Below, in pieces: positions 12,981 through 60,381 of a stretch of DNA of 64,000 nt. A program made the translations under genes and the position numbers. The notes below the pieces were generated by a model, which did no database searches, was not told the origin of the DNA, and saw only the letters and a list, made by a program, of their open reading frames with translations. Origin of the DNA: Escherichia phage vB_Eco_NicPhage; sequence record OY726582; one strand, 5' to 3'. Positions within the stretch are counted from its first letter, which is position 1; each line of letters begins with the position of its first letter.

Positions 12981-13004
12981 GGGAGACTTCGGTCTCCCAT
13001 TTTT
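12981..13004 (+). terminator. intrinsic terminator after gene 23 (GGGAGAC-UUCG-GUCUCCC plus U-run)
   Basis: 7-bp GC-rich stem with UUCG tetraloop followed by ATTTTT. Confidence 0.75.
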
Positions 13005-13008
13005 GGTT

Positions 13009-13278
13009 TTATTTCTGTGCAATTTCGATGTAAGTTTTCAAAATATTTTGCCAATTAGGCATACCTTCTTGGACATATGCCGGAGAACCATCTTTGTTTT
13101 TGAATGATGCAAGTTTATCAGTGGCCCAATAACCTTTAGCTCGAGCTTCAGAATCAACTTTCATCCATACTTTGTTGAAGGCATTACCATTAACTTTTGC
13201 ACCATATTTTTCTACTAACTTAACTGCTTCAGCTTCCAGAACTTTTAAAGTATCTCGTAAGAAACGTGCTTTAGTCAT
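13009..13278 (-). CDS. hypothetical protein, orphan early gene between capsid genes 23 and 24
   Basis: 89-aa ORF with GAGGAG ribosome-binding site and its own sigma70-like promoter upstream; no recognisable domain. Confidence 0.55.
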   Translation of the reverse strand: MTKARFLRDTLKVLEAEAVKLVEKYGAKVNGNAFNKVWMKVDSEARAKGYWATDKLASFKNKDGSPAYVQEGMPNWQNILKTYIEIAQK

Positions 13279-13308: not shown

Positions 13309-13338
13309 ATAGTATCACATACTAAATACGTTGTAAAC
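13309..13338 (-). promoter_or_regulatory. early sigma70-like promoter (-35 GTTTAC, 18-nt spacer, -10 TACTAT)
   Basis: Minus-strand GTTTAC...TGATACTATAGAC about 25 nt upstream of the 13278 ATG. Confidence 0.55.
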
Positions 13339-15814: not shown

Positions 15815-16066
15815 TTAGAACTTGATTTCTATCCAATGACCATCACGCTGGTCGTGATTAATTTTGTACTGAAAGCCGTTATCACGAAGCCATTGACCGA
15901 CTTGTTCAGTTATAGTTAAATCATTCTTTGACGGATAGTACGTGAATTGTGTCTGGCCTTTATCAGCGGCTTTCTCTGCCATCACAGAGAAGTTAGTAAT
16001 AAAATCACTCAACAAATTAGCTTTAGTGGCCAGCGCCCTTTCTCTTAATTCCTGTGCAAAACTCAT
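15815..16066 (-). CDS. hypothetical protein (T4 24.2-like position)
   Basis: 83-aa ORF between rnlB and hoc. Confidence 0.5.
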   Translation of the reverse strand: MSFAQELRERALATKANLLSDFITNFSVMAEKAADKGQTQFTYYPSKNDLTITEQVGQWLRDNGFQYKINHDQRDGHWIEIKF

Positions 16067-16263
16067 TTCTTCACCTTTTTGTTAATCAAACGTTTACGGT
16101 ATACAACTTTTTCTTTTGCTTTAAACTTTGACCGAGCTGTCTCGGCTTTAGTCCATAGTAATCCAACTTCTTTAGGTTGTAAACCAATTTTTTGAGCAAT
16201 TTCTACGAATGAAAATCCCGCCTCATGTAATGTATAAACTTCAACTTCAGCTCTCATAATCAA
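16063..16263 (-). CDS. hypothetical small basic protein (T4 24.3-like position)
   Basis: 66-aa ORF; 4-nt overlap with the downstream gene. Confidence 0.5.
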   Translation of the reverse strand: MIMRAEVEVYTLHEAGFSFVEIAQKIGLQPKEVGLLWTKAETARSKFKAKEKVVYRKRLINKKVKK

Positions 16264-29349: not shown

Positions 29350-29378
29350 AACGTTTTCCTCATGTTGTTGATGGGATG

Positions 29379-29408
29379 ATAGTATCACACATCCGTGTGT
29401 TTGTAAAC
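29379..29408 (-). promoter_or_regulatory. early sigma70-like promoter (-35 GTTTAC, 18 nt, -10 TACTAT)
   Basis: Minus-strand GTTTACaaacacacggatgtgtgaTACTAT, 30 nt upstream of the 29349 ATG. Confidence 0.55.
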
Positions 29409-31495
29409 TATCCTTGGACAAATTTAAACGGAACTGATTCTAAATCCATTAAAGATGCTAACAATTTCAAACCTTTAGGTGCACTAGTTTTTTCTACAAA
29501 TGAGGCAAAAGATACCGGCTCATCTGATTCGATTTCACCCGTCATAGCAACTACCTCGCCTGTTTCCATGAGAACATCACCATCGTAAATGACAGCTTCG
29601 TCCAACTGGTCCGAGGACATGACTTCAGCTTGAATAAATTTAAGGTTGGATTCTAAACCTGCACCAGTGTCAGATGACGCATCTGTAATTTTATTTATCT
29701 GCAAGAGAATGCCTCTAGGCAAAATAATTTCTTGCTCATTAGGGTGATTACTCAACTGTCCGGGATAAATCACGTTAACTTTATGAGCGCCATCAATAGC
29801 CCATCCAACATTAACACGAATTTGTTCTGGCGCATGCATAGCGGTACGTGCCAGGCTAGGAGAAATAGTAACACCTTCGTCATTATTGTCAATGTTAAGC
29901 TCTTTGCGAACTTCTTCAGGAGCAAGTCCAAGGGCAACGTTCTCTTTAAACCCACCAAAAATAATAGGAGCTAATGAAGTAGAAACATAGTTTCTGAAGT
30001 AGAATACCTTATTTTTAACCATTGCTTCGTAAATAGGCATTCTGATAGACTGGGCTCTATACAACGTTAGTCCTTCAGGTAAACGGTCTCCATTTAAAAA
30101 CGCCGAATCAAGACCATCAATAGCGCGTTTAACTTCATCTTCATCTGCAACATCATAAAAATCCGGTTTATAACGGCCTAACAACATATTATTGATATCG
30201 GTATACGCAGAAGAGGCATATTCGCGAATAGCTCGTTTTTCAGCAACAGAGTATTGTTTAGGGTCCCGATTCATTGTTATATTAAAGGTGCCTCTAGCCG
30301 ATTCTCGTGCATAAGTATACATCACATTAGACAAGAACGCTGATTTACGTTGTTTCCAAGTTTTTTCAGATACTTCAGCTAAAACATCGTCGGCCAGTTG
30401 GAAATTATCACGTCTAAAATCTTCAAACCATTCGTCTTTAATAGAGTCCGCAATTTCGTTTGCAGCTTCAACAAAAGCAGCTAATGCTTTAACAGATGTT
30501 GTTTTTTCAGTTTTAATTTTCTTAGCAAACTTTTCTAAAGTTGGCTTAATAACACTACCATAAGAAACTTCATCAGCAAATCTAAAGGATTCATCAATAC
30601 GATTATAAATCTTATTTTCGATATCAGCAACTAAAGTGCCTTTTGCTGTGGATGATGCTTGGGCTAGTACGATTTCATATGCTTCAGGAAGTAATTCGGC
30701 TGTAGCCGGGCCACTAACTTCTTTAGCAGAATTTTCGTATTTCTGGAATAACTCACCTTCTTGGCGGTCAGCTTCTAAAGATTGGCTTGCGGCAATAGCA
30801 CGACGAGAAATTTTAGTACGAGCAATAACAGGCTTATCTTTACGTTTTTCTTCTACAGCAGCAATAGAACCAGCGATAGCCGTTTCTTTGGTGACTTTTT
30901 CGCCGGTCTTTTTACTCACATAAACTTCGCCAACATCAGAATCTACTTTCGTGTACAACTCTGTGTTAATGTTAGGGATGCCTTTAATATCTTCAATGTT
31001 GGCATTTTTACGAACCATCATCACATAGGTGTGTTTACCTGTGAATTGATACATTGCCGACAATACTTTAAAACGACCACCGGTTTTAGTAGAAACTAAA
31101 CGAGCAAGAAGAGTTTGAAGCTGTTGTCCACGTCCTTTCAATTTCTTGGTAGGGAATCGGAACAGAACTGCATCCATACGAAGAGCTTTAACCTGTTCAT
31201 ATACCGTATTGAAAATGGTGTTGATTGCATCAATAGGAGCAGGACCAAGGCCATTTTTCAATTCAGCGAGATTACCCTTTTCAGACAGACTCATAATAAC
31301 AACATGAGCGTATTTGTCGCCAAGTTTAACTTGTTTTACAGCATCGCCTTCAGAAAGGTAAGAGAATAAGCGAACTACGATGTTTGTATCGATATCACCA
31401 ATTTTCCAGACTTGTGGAACTTTAGCTTTAGGGTTCAAATTGACGACAGGAAGACTGCCTTCAGATTCAAACACTTCATTTAATTGTTCAGACAT
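29408..31495 (-). CDS. alt: Alt ADP-ribosyltransferase (head-packaged, modifies host RNA polymerase)
   Basis: 695-aa ORF; size and position (between gene 54 and ligase gene 30) as T4 alt. Confidence 0.8.
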   Translation of the reverse strand: MSEQLNEVFESEGSLPVVNLNPKAKVPQVWKIGDIDTNIVVRLFSYLSEGDAVKQVKLGDKYAHVVIMSLSEKGNLAELKNGLGPAPIDAINTIFNTVYEQVKALRMDAVLFRFPTKKLKGRGQQLQTLLARLVSTKTGGRFKVLSAMYQFTGKHTYVMMVRKNANIEDIKGIPNINTELYTKVDSDVGEVYVSKKTGEKVTKETAIAGSIAAVEEKRKDKPVIARTKISRRAIAASQSLEADRQEGELFQKYENSAKEVSGPATAELLPEAYEIVLAQASSTAKGTLVADIENKIYNRIDESFRFADEVSYGSVIKPTLEKFAKKIKTEKTTSVKALAAFVEAANEIADSIKDEWFEDFRRDNFQLADDVLAEVSEKTWKQRKSAFLSNVMYTYARESARGTFNITMNRDPKQYSVAEKRAIREYASSAYTDINNMLLGRYKPDFYDVADEDEVKRAIDGLDSAFLNGDRLPEGLTLYRAQSIRMPIYEAMVKNKVFYFRNYVSTSLAPIIFGGFKENVALGLAPEEVRKELNIDNNDEGVTISPSLARTAMHAPEQIRVNVGWAIDGAHKVNVIYPGQLSNHPNEQEIILPRGILLQINKITDASSDTGAGLESNLKFIQAEVMSSDQLDEAVIYDGDVLMETGEVVAMTGEIESDEPVSFASFVEKTSAPKGLKLLASLMDLESVPFKFVQG

Positions 31496-35239: not shown

Positions 35240-35854
35240 CTACTTAATGAAATTAATTTCTACCGGATGAACAACAGGTTGAGCAGTGATATATTGAGTA
35301 ATTGCTTTCATGACTAGAGCTTCAGAACCAGGATTTTTCTCAACGAATTCACGTGCTAGGTTATGAGCTTCGAGTTCACTCAATAAACCGGAACGCTGGC
35401 ATCGGCGGTCTTGAGTACCCTGTTCAGATAAAAGGACTACTACATATTTTTCATCGTCGTAGGGCTTAGCCAGTTGAGCAAATGTTCCTTTACTTCCAAA
35501 AGGAGAGTTATGTCGCCACATCACGCCGTGAGGAGTTTCAACCTTCGTATATTCGTGCGGTCCATTTTTCTTAGTTTCTTGATGTGGAACTTCATAGACC
35601 TTAGGGTTAGGACATTCAATAAAATGCTCATCTAAATCGGTCGAGAATATTAAAGTAAAACAATTACTGAATTTACCAACACCGGCCTGATAAATTTTAC
35701 CTTCAGAAGTTCTAATTTCACAAACTGAGCCGGCATCAGTAACTTCTAAAACTTCAAAAGGCTCAATAAGGTCATATGAGAACATGTTTTTAAGGCGTGG
35801 AGTAATATCCCCATTTTTAAAATTCATTTTATAAAAAGTATTAACTTTAAACAT
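35240..35854 (-). CDS. hypothetical protein
   Basis: Start placed at MFKVNTFY (GAGGA ribosome-binding site just after a hairpin); about 204 aa. Confidence 0.5.
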   Translation of the reverse strand: MFKVNTFYKMNFKNGDITPRLKNMFSYDLIEPFEVLEVTDAGSVCEIRTSEGKIYQAGVGKFSNCFTLIFSTDLDEHFIECPNPKVYEVPHQETKKNGPHEYTKVETPHGVMWRHNSPFGSKGTFAQLAKPYDDEKYVVVLLSEQGTQDRRCQRSGLLSELEAHNLAREFVEKNPGSEALVMKAITQYITAQPVVHPVEINFIK

Positions 35855-35889
35855 AATTTCCTCAGTGGGAGCCGAAGCTCCCAATTAAT

Positions 35890-36255
35890 TTAGATATCAA
35901 ATTCGTTAAGAACTACATCAAAGATTGCTTCGAGATGTTCAGGTTTAGCTCGGTTGCTCAGGATATGACGAATCCAAGTTTTAACCAGAAGTTTACGATT
36001 AACACCATTCCAGCAAGGATGAATACCTAAATCACGCTGACGGAAATCATCATCTAATGCAATTTTAAAATTTGAACCTTCCATCGTGATTGAAACCGTG
36101 ATACCATTTTCAAATCGCATATAAACGTAATTAGGAGTCATGCACTGTTCGATTTCACAAACTGTACCGTTTTCGTGTTTCCATAAGCAAATAACTTCAG
36201 AAGAACCAGCAATACCGTTAGAAACATATTTACGTTCGAAGTTGGTGTAGTTCAT
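35890..36255 (-). CDS. hypothetical protein
   Basis: 121-aa ORF preceded by an early promoter. Confidence 0.5.
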   Translation of the reverse strand: MNYTNFERKYVSNGIAGSSEVICLWKHENGTVCEIEQCMTPNYVYMRFENGITVSITMEGSNFKIALDDDFRQRDLGIHPCWNGVNRKLLVKTWIRHILSNRAKPEHLEAIFDVVLNEFDI

Positions 36256-36296
36256 TTTATTCTCCAGATGTTTAAGTTGTTTGTTGGTACAGGTCT

Positions 36297-36325
36297 ATAA
36301 TAACATAACCTGTACCAAAGTAAAC
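36297..36325 (-). promoter_or_regulatory. early sigma70-like promoter (-35 GTTTAC, 17 nt, -10 TATTAT) flanked by the inverted repeat GGTACAGG/CCTGTACC
   Basis: Minus-strand GTTTACtttggtacaggttatgtTATTATagacctgtacc upstream of the 36255 ATG. Confidence 0.5.
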
Positions 36326-36329
36326 TGTT

Positions 36330-36698
36330 TTATGCAACTTTAATCCAATTGTCTAAATTTAAAACACCTTTGGCTTTCATTTTTTCGATCAGGTTATCTG
36401 CTGTAATGCGTCCATTTTGATACCATGTAACATCTTCAGAGTAACCAGTTTCTTCGTCAACATATGTTTCTGAACGAATTTTACCGGTAATAATAGTTTT
36501 TAATTCATATGTGTCACCTGTGAAAAAGTTTGCTAACACAATTTTCCAAGAGAAATCATCTGAAGGACCTTCAGGGGTCATACAACCTACGAACTCAAAT
36601 TGCTCTTTGTATAACATCCACTGGAATTCTTTAATTTCGATAGCTTTATAACCGTCGTGGTCTTTACATTTGATGTATGAGTTCAGATTGATTTTCAT
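36330..36698 (-). CDS. hypothetical protein
   Basis: 122-aa ORF preceded by an early promoter. Confidence 0.5.
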   Translation of the reverse strand: MKINLNSYIKCKDHDGYKAIEIKEFQWMLYKEQFEFVGCMTPEGPSDDFSWKIVLANFFTGDTYELKTIITGKIRSETYVDEETGYSEDVTWYQNGRITADNLIEKMKAKGVLNLDNWIKVA

Positions 36699-36740
36699 TT
36701 TGTTCTCCGGTTTGTTTTATCGATTAGGTGGTACAAGTCT

Positions 36741-36769
36741 ATAGTAACACATCCTACAGGAGAGTAAAC
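36741..36769 (-). promoter_or_regulatory. early sigma70-like promoter (-35 GTTTAC, 17 nt, -10 TACTAT)
   Basis: Minus-strand GTTTACtctcctgtaggatgtgtTACTATagac, about 40 nt upstream of the 36698 ATG. Confidence 0.55.
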
Positions 36770-36796
36770 ATCTTTTTTAAACTTTTTCTGCCCTAA

Positions 36797-36824
36797 ACGC
36801 ACAAAAGGGAGACCGAAGTCTCCC
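36797..36824 (-). terminator. intrinsic terminator GGGAGAC-UUCG-GUCUCCC plus U-run (minus strand)
   Basis: Same 18-nt hairpin as at 12981, in minus orientation, followed by CTTTTGTGCGTTT. Confidence 0.7.
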
Positions 36825-36829
36825 TAAAA

Positions 36830-37009
36830 TTATGCAACAACCTTTCCAAAACGAGAAGCATCATCTCGAAGAACTGCACGTGCTCTGCGCATGATCTTCT
36901 CAACTGTTTGATTAATACGAGAGTTCGACCCACGCTTGTATCCAGCGCGTTTAGAGGTACCATCAACTTTCTTTTCAACTGCTTTCTTTGCTTTAGCTTG
37001 TTTTGCCAT
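36830..37009 (-). CDS. small lysine/arginine-rich protein, 59 aa (possible nucleic-acid binding)
   Basis: Own translation: MAKQAKAKKAVEKKVDGTSKRAGYKRGSNSRINQTVEKIMRRARAVLRDDASRFGKVVA; below the 60-aa cutoff of the ORF track; followed by the terminator. Confidence 0.4.
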   Translation of the reverse strand: MAKQAKAKKAVEKKVDGTSKRAGYKRGSNSRINQTVEKIMRRARAVLRDDASRFGKVVA

Positions 37010-37304
37010 TATAAATTCTCTTTAAATGAAAATGCAGGACTTATTGACATTGCCTGCGCAAGCCCTCAAGGGGAACATAGGTTTTGGATATTTAACGACA
37101 GGATAACCATAAACCCGTCATCATACCAACCACGACTTAGACAGATAACCTTTTTCTGACGCGTGATAGTACAAAATACATTCAAGAGGTACACCGTAAA
37201 ACTGCCGGGGCCTTAAAACTATAATGATTCGCAAATCATTAATCAGACAGTTCGACGGCTCCTCGATTTTCTAGCCGCACTTAAGGTAGCGAATCACCTA
37301 AAAC

Positions 37305-37553
37305 TTATTTAAGGGTAATAACAAAATGACGTACTGCTTTACGAGCTGCAGAAGCCAAAGGCTTAGCATATTTCAGTTCATCTTTTGCTTCCAGTTCAGA
37401 GGCCAAAGCTGCCTGTACCGGGTTCAGATGTTTGAAATAATGCAGGATTTCCAGTGCTTCGGCTTCAACATCAATCGACGCGCCGTAGTTTTCGTGACCG
37501 TTATTCCATGCGTTTCGTTGCAGTTCAAGAGCGTGTTGTAATTGTTTAATCAT
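37305..37553 (-). CDS. rIII: rIII lysis inhibition accessory protein
   Basis: 82-aa ORF (T4 rIII is 82 aa) immediately downstream of gene 31 as in T4. Confidence 0.7.
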   Translation of the reverse strand: MIKQLQHALELQRNAWNNGHENYGASIDVEAEALEILHYFKHLNPVQAALASELEAKDELKYAKPLASAARKAVRHFVITLK

Positions 37554-37677: not shown

Positions 37678-38010
37678 TCACTTATAAAGACACGGAATAG
37701 CTTTATAGTGGCATGTTACGAATTTCTGTTTAATTTCTTTAGGTTGTTTAAGTCCCAAAGCCACAAATGGATGTGGAACATTTCGAATTTGTCCAACTGG
37801 TAGTGGAGTCAAATCACCGACTTCAACAAAACCTTCAGGAACATCAGGACCTACAGAATGAACTACACATAGTTCAGGAACTTCACCTTGAACACGTTTA
37901 CCAATCACAAGTCCTGATTCGGTAACTTCTTCATCACCTGCTTGAGCGGGTTCAGAAACCAGAATGACATATTCACCAACAGCACGAATTGGGAGTTGTA
38001 CTTCAGACAT
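37678..38010 (-). CDS. 31: co-chaperonin gp31 (GroES-like, capsid folding)
   Basis: 110-aa ORF (T4 gp31 is 111 aa), Gly/Val-rich GroES-like composition, synteny with rIII and cd. Confidence 0.85.
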
Positions 38011-38067
38011 CTTATTTCCTTGTTGTTTGACGATAGATTAATAATACCATACTATTCGTAAAGCATA

Positions 38068-40296: not shown

Positions 40297-40334
40297 TTCT
40301 ATTTCCTCATTTGTTGGTAGAGTTATAGTATCAC

Positions 40335-40364
40335 AACTCCACCACGTTGTAAACCATTAAATTG
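40335..40364 (-). promoter_or_regulatory. early sigma70-like promoter (-35 GTTTAC, 18 nt, -10 TACTAT)
   Basis: Minus-strand GTTTACaacgtggtggagttgtgaTACTATaactc upstream of the 40296 ATG. Confidence 0.55.
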
Positions 40365-42123: not shown

Positions 42124-42124
<1 letters not shown>

Positions 42125-42423
42125 TATTTTATTCCTAAGAAAATTTCAAGAATACGAATGTTATGCTCGCGCCGGTCTTTATTAATTTCAGCAACGTTTT
42201 TATTAATTGACGTACTTCTAACGTTTGAAGAAATAAATTTAATCATATGACTTTTGAGTTGTTGCAAATCCAACCCTTTTTCTTTAGCAGCTTTACGAAG
42301 AGCTTTACCTGCTTCATCTAGTGCCTTTGCTGCATCTTTGTCATAATTGCCAAGTGACATTCCACGACAGATATCAATATACTCATCAGACCGTTTGATG
42401 TAATTCTCTAGTAATGTTTTCAT
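42124..42423 (-). CDS. hypothetical protein
   Basis: 99-aa ORF. Confidence 0.45.
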
Positions 42424-42480
42424 TTAGATTTCCTCAATTATCCATAGGAGCATTATACTCTGCTCCTGAGAGTTTGTAAA

Positions 42481-42705
42481 CTATTTTACTAAAGATTCAA
42501 TATACTCGTGAAGAGCTTTAGTCGCTACTGCCCACTTATTCTGATATTCATTTTTCAGATTAGCACGAGACTGAACTAACAATCGGTCATTAGTCGGAGG
42601 CAAAGATTCTAATCGTTGAATCTGGCGCCCATAAATCATAGCCGCCATTTCAGATTCATAGATAAGCCCTTTAATGTATTCATGCTGTTCTTTAGTCATT
42701 GGCAT
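42481..42705 (-). CDS. hypothetical protein
   Basis: 74-aa ORF. Confidence 0.4.
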   Translation of the reverse strand: MPMTKEQHEYIKGLIYESEMAAMIYGRQIQRLESLPPTNDRLLVQSRANLKNEYQNKWAVATKALHEYIESLVK

Positions 42706-43856: not shown

Positions 43857-43886
43857 ATAGTATCACCATCCTTGGTGTTTGTAAAC
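43857..43886 (-). promoter_or_regulatory. early sigma70-like promoter (-35 GTTTAC, 18 nt, -10 TACTAT)
   Basis: Minus-strand GTTTACaaacaccaaggatggtgaTACTATgggt about 30 nt upstream of the alc ATG. Confidence 0.55.
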
Positions 43887-45040: not shown

Positions 45041-45070
45041 ATTGTACCACAATCCTTGTGGTATGTAAAC
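45041..45070 (-). promoter_or_regulatory. early sigma70-like promoter upstream of rnlA (-35 GTTTAC, -10 TACAAT) with embedded inverted repeat ACCACAA/TTGTGGT
   Basis: Minus-strand GTTTACataccacaaggattgtggTACAAT about 30 nt upstream of the rnlA ATG. Confidence 0.5.
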
Positions 45071-51483: not shown

Positions 51484-51546
51484 TTTATTCTCCTCTTCAC
51501 TTTTATTTTATAGGGCTACTATAACATAGCCCTATCTTGTTATAAA

Positions 51547-51939
51547 CTACTTTTTAAAAGTTTTTTGCAAAAGTTTGATGATTTCGTCGACGTTAGTTTC
51601 ATCTACGATACAATGGATTTTTGTTACACCTAAAGTTATACCTTCGTTAGTAGGTTGAGGCTTTACTAAATCTACCTCAGTAAAGTATTTGAACTCGTCA
51701 GGATAAATCTCAAAATAAGTTTCAATTTCATCACCGGCAGAACATACAGTACCATCTTCCATAGTTACACTTACTACGTTTGACGTATCGCTATCATAAT
51801 CAGGTTCCATTCCGTTTACAACAAAACTAGGCCCGTGGAGTTCAATCAATTTTAACATCTTAGCGTTATTATGTGGTGCTTCTTGAACAAAGTCGTCTTT
51901 AAATAAAGGGTTAATGATATAAGATTTTCCGATTTCCAT
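51547..51939 (-). CDS. hypothetical protein (frd.3-like position)
   Basis: 130-aa ORF preceded by an early promoter. Confidence 0.5.
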   Translation of the reverse strand: MEIGKSYIINPLFKDDFVQEAPHNNAKMLKLIELHGPSFVVNGMEPDYDSDTSNVVSVTMEDGTVCSAGDEIETYFEIYPDEFKYFTEVDLVKPQPTNEGITLGVTKIHCIVDETNVDEIIKLLQKTFKK

Positions 51940-51968: not shown

Positions 51969-51997
51969 ATACTAACACATCCAGGGAAGAAGTAAAC
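51969..51997 (-). promoter_or_regulatory. early sigma70-like promoter (-35 GTTTAC, 17 nt, -10 TAGTAT)
   Basis: Minus-strand GTTTACttcttccctggatgtgtTAGTATagac, about 30 nt upstream of the 51939 ATG. Confidence 0.55.
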
Positions 51998-52020: not shown

Positions 52021-52046
52021 ACTCAAAAGGGAGACCGAAGTCTCCC
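52021..52046 (-). terminator. intrinsic terminator after gene 32 (GGGAGAC-UUCG-GUCUCCC plus U-run)
   Basis: Same 18-nt hairpin as at 12981 and 36807, followed on the minus strand by TTTTGAG. Confidence 0.7.
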
Positions 52047-55265: not shown

Positions 55266-55295
55266 TATAGTAACACACTCATTTGAAAGCGTAAA
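55266..55295 (-). promoter_or_regulatory. early sigma70-like promoter for rnh (-35 GTTTAC, 18 nt, -10 TACTAT)
   Basis: Minus-strand GTTTACgctttcaaatgagtgtgtTACTATagac about 30 nt upstream of the rnh ATG. Confidence 0.55.
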
Positions 55296-55298
55296 CTG

Positions 55299-60357: not shown

Positions 60358-60381
60358 GGGAGACTTCGGTCTCCCATTTTT
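60358..60381 (+). terminator. intrinsic terminator after gene 35 (GGGAGAC-UUCG-GUCUCCC plus U-run)
   Basis: Identical hairpin to 12981-12998, followed by ATTTTTG. Confidence 0.75.

Follow-up and report, generated by a model that had tools for sequence, protein, structure and literature searches.

Predicted T4-type early promoters in a Mosigvirus genome: a minus-strand family with conserved flanks and promoter-specific stem-loops

Positions 36,741 to 36,769 of a 64,000-nucleotide stretch of Escherichia phage vB_Eco_NicPhage (OY726582; the whole stretch is hereafter the window) carry a promoter-like element that recurs across the window on the minus strand, which raises the question of what reads these elements and why their conservation extends beyond the two hexamers. 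The original prediction grouped this site with eight others and suggested that the additional conservation marks an extra recognition element, i.e. an extended -10, a discriminator, or a binding site for a phage or host factor. Our analysis indicates that the sites are very probably the early promoters (Pe) of a T4-like Mosigvirus and, by analogy with T4, would be read by the unmodified E. coli sigma70 holoenzyme right after injection of the DNA. The promoter family, its extra conservation and the stem-loops embedded in it are already known from the literature on T4, on RB69 and on the promoter-early stem-loops (PeSLs).

The segment 35000-39000 of the window is 99.7% identical to Escherichia phage vB_EcoM_G53, a Mosigvirus, and 98-99% identical to many RB69-like phages. 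The gene order of the window matches that of T4 and RB69, with late structural genes on the plus strand and a long pre-replicative block, running from alt to rnh, on the minus strand. On these sequence comparisons the window is a Mosigvirus genome closely related to RB69. For scans of the whole genome the window was joined to the flanks of G53 (MK327943).

The strict pattern GTTTAC-N16-18-TA[ACGT]TAT matches the minus strand of the window nine times and the plus strand not at all, whereas dinucleotide shuffles contain 0.14 matches on average and never more than 1; this rules out a chance origin and shows the predicted family to be real. A two-block weight matrix, built iteratively on the whole genome, recovered 53 minus-strand sites and no plus-strand site genome-wide, and 12 and none, respectively, in the window, where the scores are bimodal, with 12 sites at 24 or above and almost nothing between 4 and 14. 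The same procedure applied to T4 yielded 37 minus-strand sites and none on the plus strand. Confinement to the minus strand, which had been claimed for the nine sites, thus extends to the entire genome, and would arise because the pre-replicative genes of T4-like phages are transcribed in that direction. A scan of the interval 35800-37400 with a generic sigma70 consensus reported only the promoter at 36297 of the two present there and also missed the UUCG hairpins; such a scan scores the early promoters poorly, since neither GTTTAC nor TACTAT is identical to the corresponding E. coli hexamer. The palindrome that forms these hairpins, 18-nt GGGAGAC-(TTCG/CGAA)-GTCTCCC, occurs in four copies in the window (12981-12998, 36807-36824, 52029-52046 and 60358-60375), the first of which comes after gene 23, while the second and third lie just upstream of early promoters (Table 1).

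Table 1. Predicted early promoters and associated features of the window. Identities to RB69 sites are over about 50 nt; folding energies are predicted.
Feature	Position	Strand	Sequence elements and setting	RB69 and T4 counterparts	Hairpin or stem-loop
Early promoter, 89-aa ORF (13009-13278)	13309-13338	minus	-10 TACTAT 13309-13314; -35 GTTTAC 13333-13338	RB69 Pe:109605, 96%; T4 homology begins at 13331, inside the promoter	
Early promoter, 24.2	16155-16184	minus	Within ORF 24.3, 88 nt upstream of the 24.2 ATG (16066)	RB69 Pe:112451, 98%; T4 homology block begins at 16150	
Early promoter, alt.-3	29379-29408	minus		RB69 Pe:125323, 94%; T4 123064-123093	Spacer hairpin CACAC-GGAT-GTGTG (29386-29399)
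Early promoter, 30.7	36297-36325	minus	GTTTAC-N17 spacer class	RB69 Pe:131670; T4 129890-129918 (T4 arms GGTACAGG/CCTGTACC)	Stem-loop 36285-36317 around -10; arms GGTACAGGT/ACCTGTACC; -16.5 kcal/mol
Early promoter, 30.8	36741-36769	minus		RB69 Pe:132117, 92%	
Early promoter, cd.2	40325-40354	minus		RB69 Pe:134561, 98%; T4 133302 (Pe133295)	Stem-loop 40315-40344 around -10; arms GGTGGAGTT/AACTCTACC; -16.9 kcal/mol
Early promoter, 99-aa ORF (42124-42423)	42452-42481	minus	-10 TATAAT	RB69 Pe:136687, 98%; T4 homology block begins at 42488	Stem-loop 42441-42471; arms AGGAGC/GCTCCT flank -10
Early promoter, alc	43857-43886	minus		RB69 Pe:138093, 90%; T4 136307-136336	Spacer hairpin CACC-AAGGAT-GGTG (43864-43877)
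Early promoter, rnlA	45041-45070	minus	-10 TACAAT	RB69 Pe:139277, 100%	Spacer hairpin TACCACA-AGGAT-TGTGGTA (45045-45063)
Early promoter, frd.1	51518-51547	minus	-35 GTTTAT; -10 TATAGT	RB69 Pe:145300, 98%	Stem-loop 51510-51535 around -10; arms ATAGGGCTAT/ATAGCCCTAT; -15.4 kcal/mol
Early promoter, frd.2	51969-51997	minus	GTTTAC-N17 spacer class	RB69 Pe:146013, likewise with '1 bp del' spacer	
Early promoter, rnh	55267-55296	minus		RB69 Pe:149309; T4 150734-150763 (Pe148.6)	
Middle-type promoter, gene 31	38041-38065	minus	MotA box ATGCTTTA-N12-TATTAT, then CTATC start region as in early promoters	T4 P31	
alt gene	29408-31495	minus	Pfam PF03496, E=2.9e-28	Syntenic with RB69 and T4 alt	
Terminator-like hairpin	36807-36824	minus	38 nt upstream of the -35 of the 36741 promoter		GGGAGAC-TTCG-GTCTCCC, then TTTT
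Terminator-like hairpin	52029-52046	minus	Upstream of the 51969 promoter		GGGAGAC-TTCG-GTCTCCC, then TTTT

Each of the 12 sites lies upstream of, and is co-oriented with, an ortholog of a T4 pre-replicative gene; the genes served are named in Table 1, together with two small ORFs. Seven of the nine coordinate pairs first listed (those starting at 13309, 29379, 36297, 36741, 43857, 45041 and 51969) were exact, whereas two were misplaced, 40335-40364 by 10 nt and 55266-55295 by 1 nt. The -10 consensus TA(C/G/T)TAT given for the nine leaves out one of them, 45041, and the list lacked three members, namely 16155, 42452 and 51518. As for the proposed distance of 25-40 nt to the downstream ATG, we measured 27-42 nt from the end of the -10 in 11 of the 12 sites and 88 nt at 16155; given its ORF-internal location this far from the next ATG, the latter promoter may be weaker or have another role. 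The 88-nt leader of 16155 (16066-16184, minus) has a hairpin rich in G/C, GCCGAGACAGCTCGGTC, ahead of the 24.2 start, and is unlike the leaders of the other sites, which are short and unstructured. The leaders of 29379, 40325, 42452 and 51969 (e.g. 29350-29372) have in common AUCAACAACAUGAGGAAA, in which an out-of-frame AUG, 12-14 nt ahead of the true start codon, directly precedes the GAGGA Shine-Dalgarno sequence.

To place the family among known promoters we took the RB69 sequences at the 13 Pe coordinates listed for the homologous region (Additional file 3, PMC1524935). All 12 window sites pair one-to-one with RB69 Pe sites at 63-100% identity over about 50 nt, and the RB69 sites annotated as '1 bp del' are those of the N17 spacer class here; RB69 Pe:136969 has no counterpart above the scan threshold in the window. 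Nolan et al. 2006 predicted 58 early promoters in RB69, 57 of them on the minus strand, and noted, besides GTTTAC at -36 to -31, A-rich sequence from -40 to -44, a stretch rich in G and T on the 5' side of -12 and, in RB69, C residues between -3 and -1 (PMC1524935). GTTTAC, the A-rich tract, the C residues and the '1 bp del' class all recur in our sites, although the published set was predicted in a different isolate. The T4 early promoters, described by Hinton 2010 as 'uber' UP/-35/TGn/-10 promoters with additional consensus regions, are used by the unmodified host polymerase (PMC2988021). The window sites resemble them in GTTTAC(A/T) at -36 to -30, the TGn element, a -10 of the form TA(T/C)(T/A)AT, A-rich sequence at -44 to -40, a CTATCAA start region, exclusive minus-strand location and association with pre-replicative genes. 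Several have positional orthologs in T4 (Table 1), and that of 40325 is named in the T4 record itself as 'early promoter Pe133295 between cd.2 and cd.3'. This T4-type design and the orthology to RB69 and T4 promoters support the proposal that the sites are early promoters.

The T4 counterpart of the rnh promoter, Pe148.6, is active 1 min after infection by primer extension, and its published map starts at 150,727 (PMC6024815), which is 7 nt past the -10 located in our T4 scan; for this ortholog the start thus falls within the 6-8 nt downstream of the -10 that had been predicted. Within the library searched, no mapping of transcript 5' ends turned up for this phage or for any Mosigvirus, so that the activity and timing of the window promoters rest on T4 orthology. 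The two phages also differ: 53 early sites are predicted here versus 37 in T4, the N17 spacer class accounts for 15 of the 53 but only 2 of the 37, and the lineage preferences are GG at -20/-19, T-13 and AGACC at -6 to -2 in this phage as opposed to G-13 and ACAAC in T4.

The anatomy of the sites bears on the extra conservation. In the window the -35 is GTTTAC in 11 of 12 sites and GTTTAT in the remaining one; over the 53 genomic sites G-36 is present in 87%, T-35, T-33 and A-32 each in 100%, and C-31 in 98%. GTTTAC is separated from the -10 by 17 or 18 nt at all sites, and T-12, A-11 and T-7 are invariant. Outside the hexamers the logo of the 53 sites gives T-15 in 81%, G-14 in 79%, A-40 in 83%, T-1 in 85% and A+1 in 83%, and overall approximates tttcA.AAAa..GTTTAC(A/T)...GG.TRTGnTA(T/C)(T/A)AT AGACCT A(+1)TCAA, which reproduces the surrounding motif GGATGTGTTACTATAGAC of the original prediction. 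For a non-circular test of the flanks we used only the 36 sites picked by the hexamer pattern alone, and this confirmed conservation beyond the hexamers: G-14 is present in 30 of the 36 (p=1e-16), T-15 in 29 and T-17 in 22, with R-16 enriched alongside them upstream of the -10; enrichment extends to C-3, C-2, T-1, A+1, T+2 and C+3 (p<1e-5 for each) and, farther upstream, to A at -44, -42, -41 and -40 (p from 2e-4 to 1e-8). The extended -10, one of the candidates for the additional element, is indeed present, as TG occupies -15/-14 in 9 of the 11 pattern-picked window sites and in 41 of the 53 genomic sites (77%). The TGn element is contacted by region 3 of sigma, and transcription starts preferentially at a purine (+1) that is preceded by a pyrimidine (-1). 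As in E. coli promoters with extended -10 elements (TGn/TRTGn), T-15 and G-14 immediately precede the -10, with enrichment of T-17 and R-16 here too; the host promoters of this type, however, usually lack a good -35, whereas the early promoters combine all elements (PMC2988021).

Comparison with T4 separates the flank positions into two groups. TG at -15/-14, T-17, the upstream A-tract, G-36, A-6 and T-1 A+1 T+2 C+3 are common to T4 and this phage and, because both use the same E. coli polymerase, are best read as polymerase contacts or determinants of start-site selection. Enriched in the Mosigvirus lineage only are G-20 (64% versus 32% in T4), together with the adjoining G of the GG at -20/-19, G-5 (51% versus 24%) and C-3 (74% versus 49%); these look more like a family signature kept by common descent or recombination. 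The discriminator element that had been suggested is accordingly only partly general, since G-5 differs this much between two phages served by one polymerase. Such lineage-specific positions also lend some weight to a different account, in which the extra conservation stems mainly from descent and recombinational homogenisation of a mobile PeSL cassette and not from polymerase contacts. PeSLs have been proposed to mediate modular gene shuffling (PMC4122927, PMC2839356), and 6 of the 12 promoters have the end of a T4 homology block no more than 30 nt away; at 36325, where the upstream ORF 30.8 has diverged, the homology stops exactly at the -35. These endpoints are as expected if the cassettes are junctions of modular exchange, but both promoters and block ends favor intergenic DNA, which confounds the association. 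Moreover, the strongest of the extra positions (TG at -15/-14, the A-tract, G-36, T-1/A+1) are those common to T4 and match known contacts. As the main source of the conservation this account is therefore possible but rather doubtful, and it complements reading by the sigma70 holoenzyme more than it replaces it; part of the flank conservation does belong to promoter-specific stem-loops and to the shared descent of PeSL cassettes. The T4 homology edges that lie in or beside early promoters are at 13331, 16150, 29410, 36325, 42488 and 51494-51506.

Many sites contain an inverted repeat with the left arm in the spacer and the right arm running from the last bases of the -10 to about +3. Four of the window promoters (36297, 40325, 42452 and 51518) have stems bracketing the -10 with predicted energies of -12 to -17 kcal/mol, and in three (29379, 43857 and 45041) the spacer itself folds into a short hairpin. 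When each spacer was paired with its own downstream segment and with those of other promoters, Watson-Crick runs averaged 5.04 in cognate versus 3.79 in non-cognate pairs (z=8.7 in this genome; z=6.4 in T4), and runs of 6 or more were seen in 18 cognate pairs versus 4.7 expected. The arm sequences vary among promoters yet remain complementary, at least ten distinct pairs being found. Promoter cores fold better than shuffles, 26 of the 53 reaching z<-2, while about half have no significant stem. The folding is biased to the sense strand, with a mean z of -2.67 versus -1.62 for the other strand in this genome (p=2e-6) and of -1.88 versus -1.06 in T4 (p=7e-4). Nine phages from two genera retain the cd.2 hairpin; the two differences between the genera are one-sided changes that preserve a G.U pair on the sense strand. 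Taken together, these features favor a structure formed by read-through RNA over an operator bound by a protein. A spacer motif that recurs in both phages consists of CACA/CACC, AAGGAT and then TGTG/GGTG, and folds into a small hairpin in which the extended -10 TGTG serves as the right arm; it is found in the three spacer hairpins of Table 1 and at T4 2429, 50944 and 167057.

The remaining candidate of the original prediction, a phage or host factor that binds the flanks TGTGTTA and ATAGAC in a sequence-specific manner, found no support and appears highly improbable; a factor that shuts off early transcription would be one example. It would accommodate the dyad symmetry centered on the -10 of many promoters, and the shut-off mechanism of T4 early promoters is described as not completely understood. 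However, the arms of the dyads differ between promoters while remaining complementary (GGACT/AGTCC, GGGCT/AGCCC, GGTCT/AGACC, GGAAG/CTTCC, GAGAGC/GCTCTC and GGTACAGG/CCTGTACC), which is the signature of a nucleic-acid structure and not of one protein on one sequence; we rejected the operator reading of the dyads on the ground that their arms covary instead of being conserved. In addition, the register of the arms relative to the -10 varies, the folding is sense-strand biased and includes G.U pairs, and the invariant flank positions are those of TGn and the start site. Least likely of all, to the point of being negligible, is that the sites are MotA/AsiA-dependent middle promoters or late promoters: middle promoters do have the -10 and TGn block in common with early ones, and one true middle-type site lies in the window upstream of gene 31, but positions -36 to -31 read GTTTAC or GTTTAT at every one of the 12 sites, and both the MotA box ((a/t)(a/t)(a/t)TGCTTtA centered at -30) and the late motif TATAAATA are absent from all 12. 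The predicted start of the gene 31 middle promoter is 24 nt before the ATG at 38010, and the site corresponds to T4 P31, whose start at 131540 is likewise 24 nt before the gene 31 ATG.

Returning to the stem-loops of the early promoters, the closest known elements are the PeSLs, which Arbiol et al. 2010 defined in RB49/phi1, with stems most often between the -35 and -10 or over the -10 and acting as terminators or attenuators (PMC2839356), and which were broadened by Comeau et al. 2014 to T4/PST, where they follow the consensus TTTACW-N17-TAYWAT (PMC4122927). Our promoters share with them the order of AT-rich tract, sigma70-type early promoter, stem-loop, Shine-Dalgarno sequence and ATG, the placement of the stem, and a fit to the T4/PST consensus; a location of cassettes at homology boundaries with a related phage may be a further point in common. 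They differ in that the RB49/phi1 stems are G/C-rich and shown to terminate, while those found here mostly contain A/T and have no U-tract, so that they are not canonical intrinsic terminators; mini-circle formation by recombination between cassettes and termination or attenuation of upstream transcription are features shown for the RB49/phi1 PeSLs only (PMC2839356). The PeSL papers place the T4/PST stems just upstream of the promoter and describe the RB49 stems as terminators (PMC4122927, PMC2839356). Another parallel is offered by T4 e, soc, 49 and I-TevI, where a promoter lies in the 5' arm of an inhibitory hairpin formed, as here, only in read-through RNA (PMC3014915); those promoters, however, are late and the hairpin masks the site where ribosomes bind, whereas most of the present hairpins enclose the -10, with the Shine-Dalgarno sequence left unpaired.

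Some spacers are complementary over 10-14 nt to the downstream Shine-Dalgarno region, as at G53 59820, 20366, 63455 and 7412 (minus strand, outside the window) and at T4 6601, 62768 (regB) and 65385; for instance, TTCTCCTCTAGTTG pairs with CAACTAGAGGAGAA, and the differences seen in another copy are compensatory. Such pairing would resemble the arrangement of T4 e, soc, 49 and I-TevI. The longest complementary run between spacer and leader is mildly above that of permuted pairings (z=3.2 in this genome and 2.4 in T4). A general anti-Shine-Dalgarno role of the spacer, by which translation of read-through RNA would be blocked, was nevertheless rejected, as the predicted accessibility of the stretch from the Shine-Dalgarno sequence to the AUG in such RNA is 0.55 with cognate versus 0.54 with non-cognate promoters (p=0.57), and 0.47 versus 0.48 in T4 (p=0.67). 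From the sequences, individual cases look real and the effect does not look general.

We accordingly propose the following picture of how these promoters might operate. The A-rich UP-like tract at -44 to -40 would be bound by the alpha C-terminal domains of the polymerase, the T4-specific -35 variant G(-36)TTTAC(A/T) by sigma region 4, and the TRTGn extended -10 by sigma region 3. The canonical hexamers would be held 16-17 bp apart, with a -10 of the form TA(T/C)(T/A)AT, and the start region CCT-A(+1)-TC would set the start 7 nt after the -10. T4 Alt is an ADP-ribosyltransferase that is injected with the DNA and boosts some early promoters about two-fold (PMC2988021); by analogy, the Alt protein encoded in the window probably enhances some of the promoters described here. 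The stem-loop present in about half of the promoters would form only in RNA read through from upstream, where it probably attenuates or insulates the read-through, and the cassette may also supply homologous sequence for exchanging genes as modules.

For annotation, which is where their main value lies, the 12 sites delimit the early transcription units in this Mosigvirus region. The T4 early-promoter design (UP, GTTTAC, TGn and -10) carries over to this isolate, and the sites may mark junctions of modular gene exchange. By analogy with T4 they are probably very strong promoters of the sigma70 type, and could serve as genetic parts. The family itself opens no new question, and of its features only the embedded stem-loops have a function that is still putative in the T-even group. 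A quantified, -10-centered dyad that is general in the Tevenvirinae would modestly extend the work on PeSLs. Tentatively, the stem-loops in about half of the T4 and Mosigvirus early promoters might even represent a selected RNA-level device acting on read-through transcripts only, though we hold this to be somewhat unlikely. If so, they could serve for attenuation, for insulation of leaders, or as processing or stability sites on read-through RNA, and each cassette would determine how much its own initiation contributes relative to the read-through inherited from upstream.
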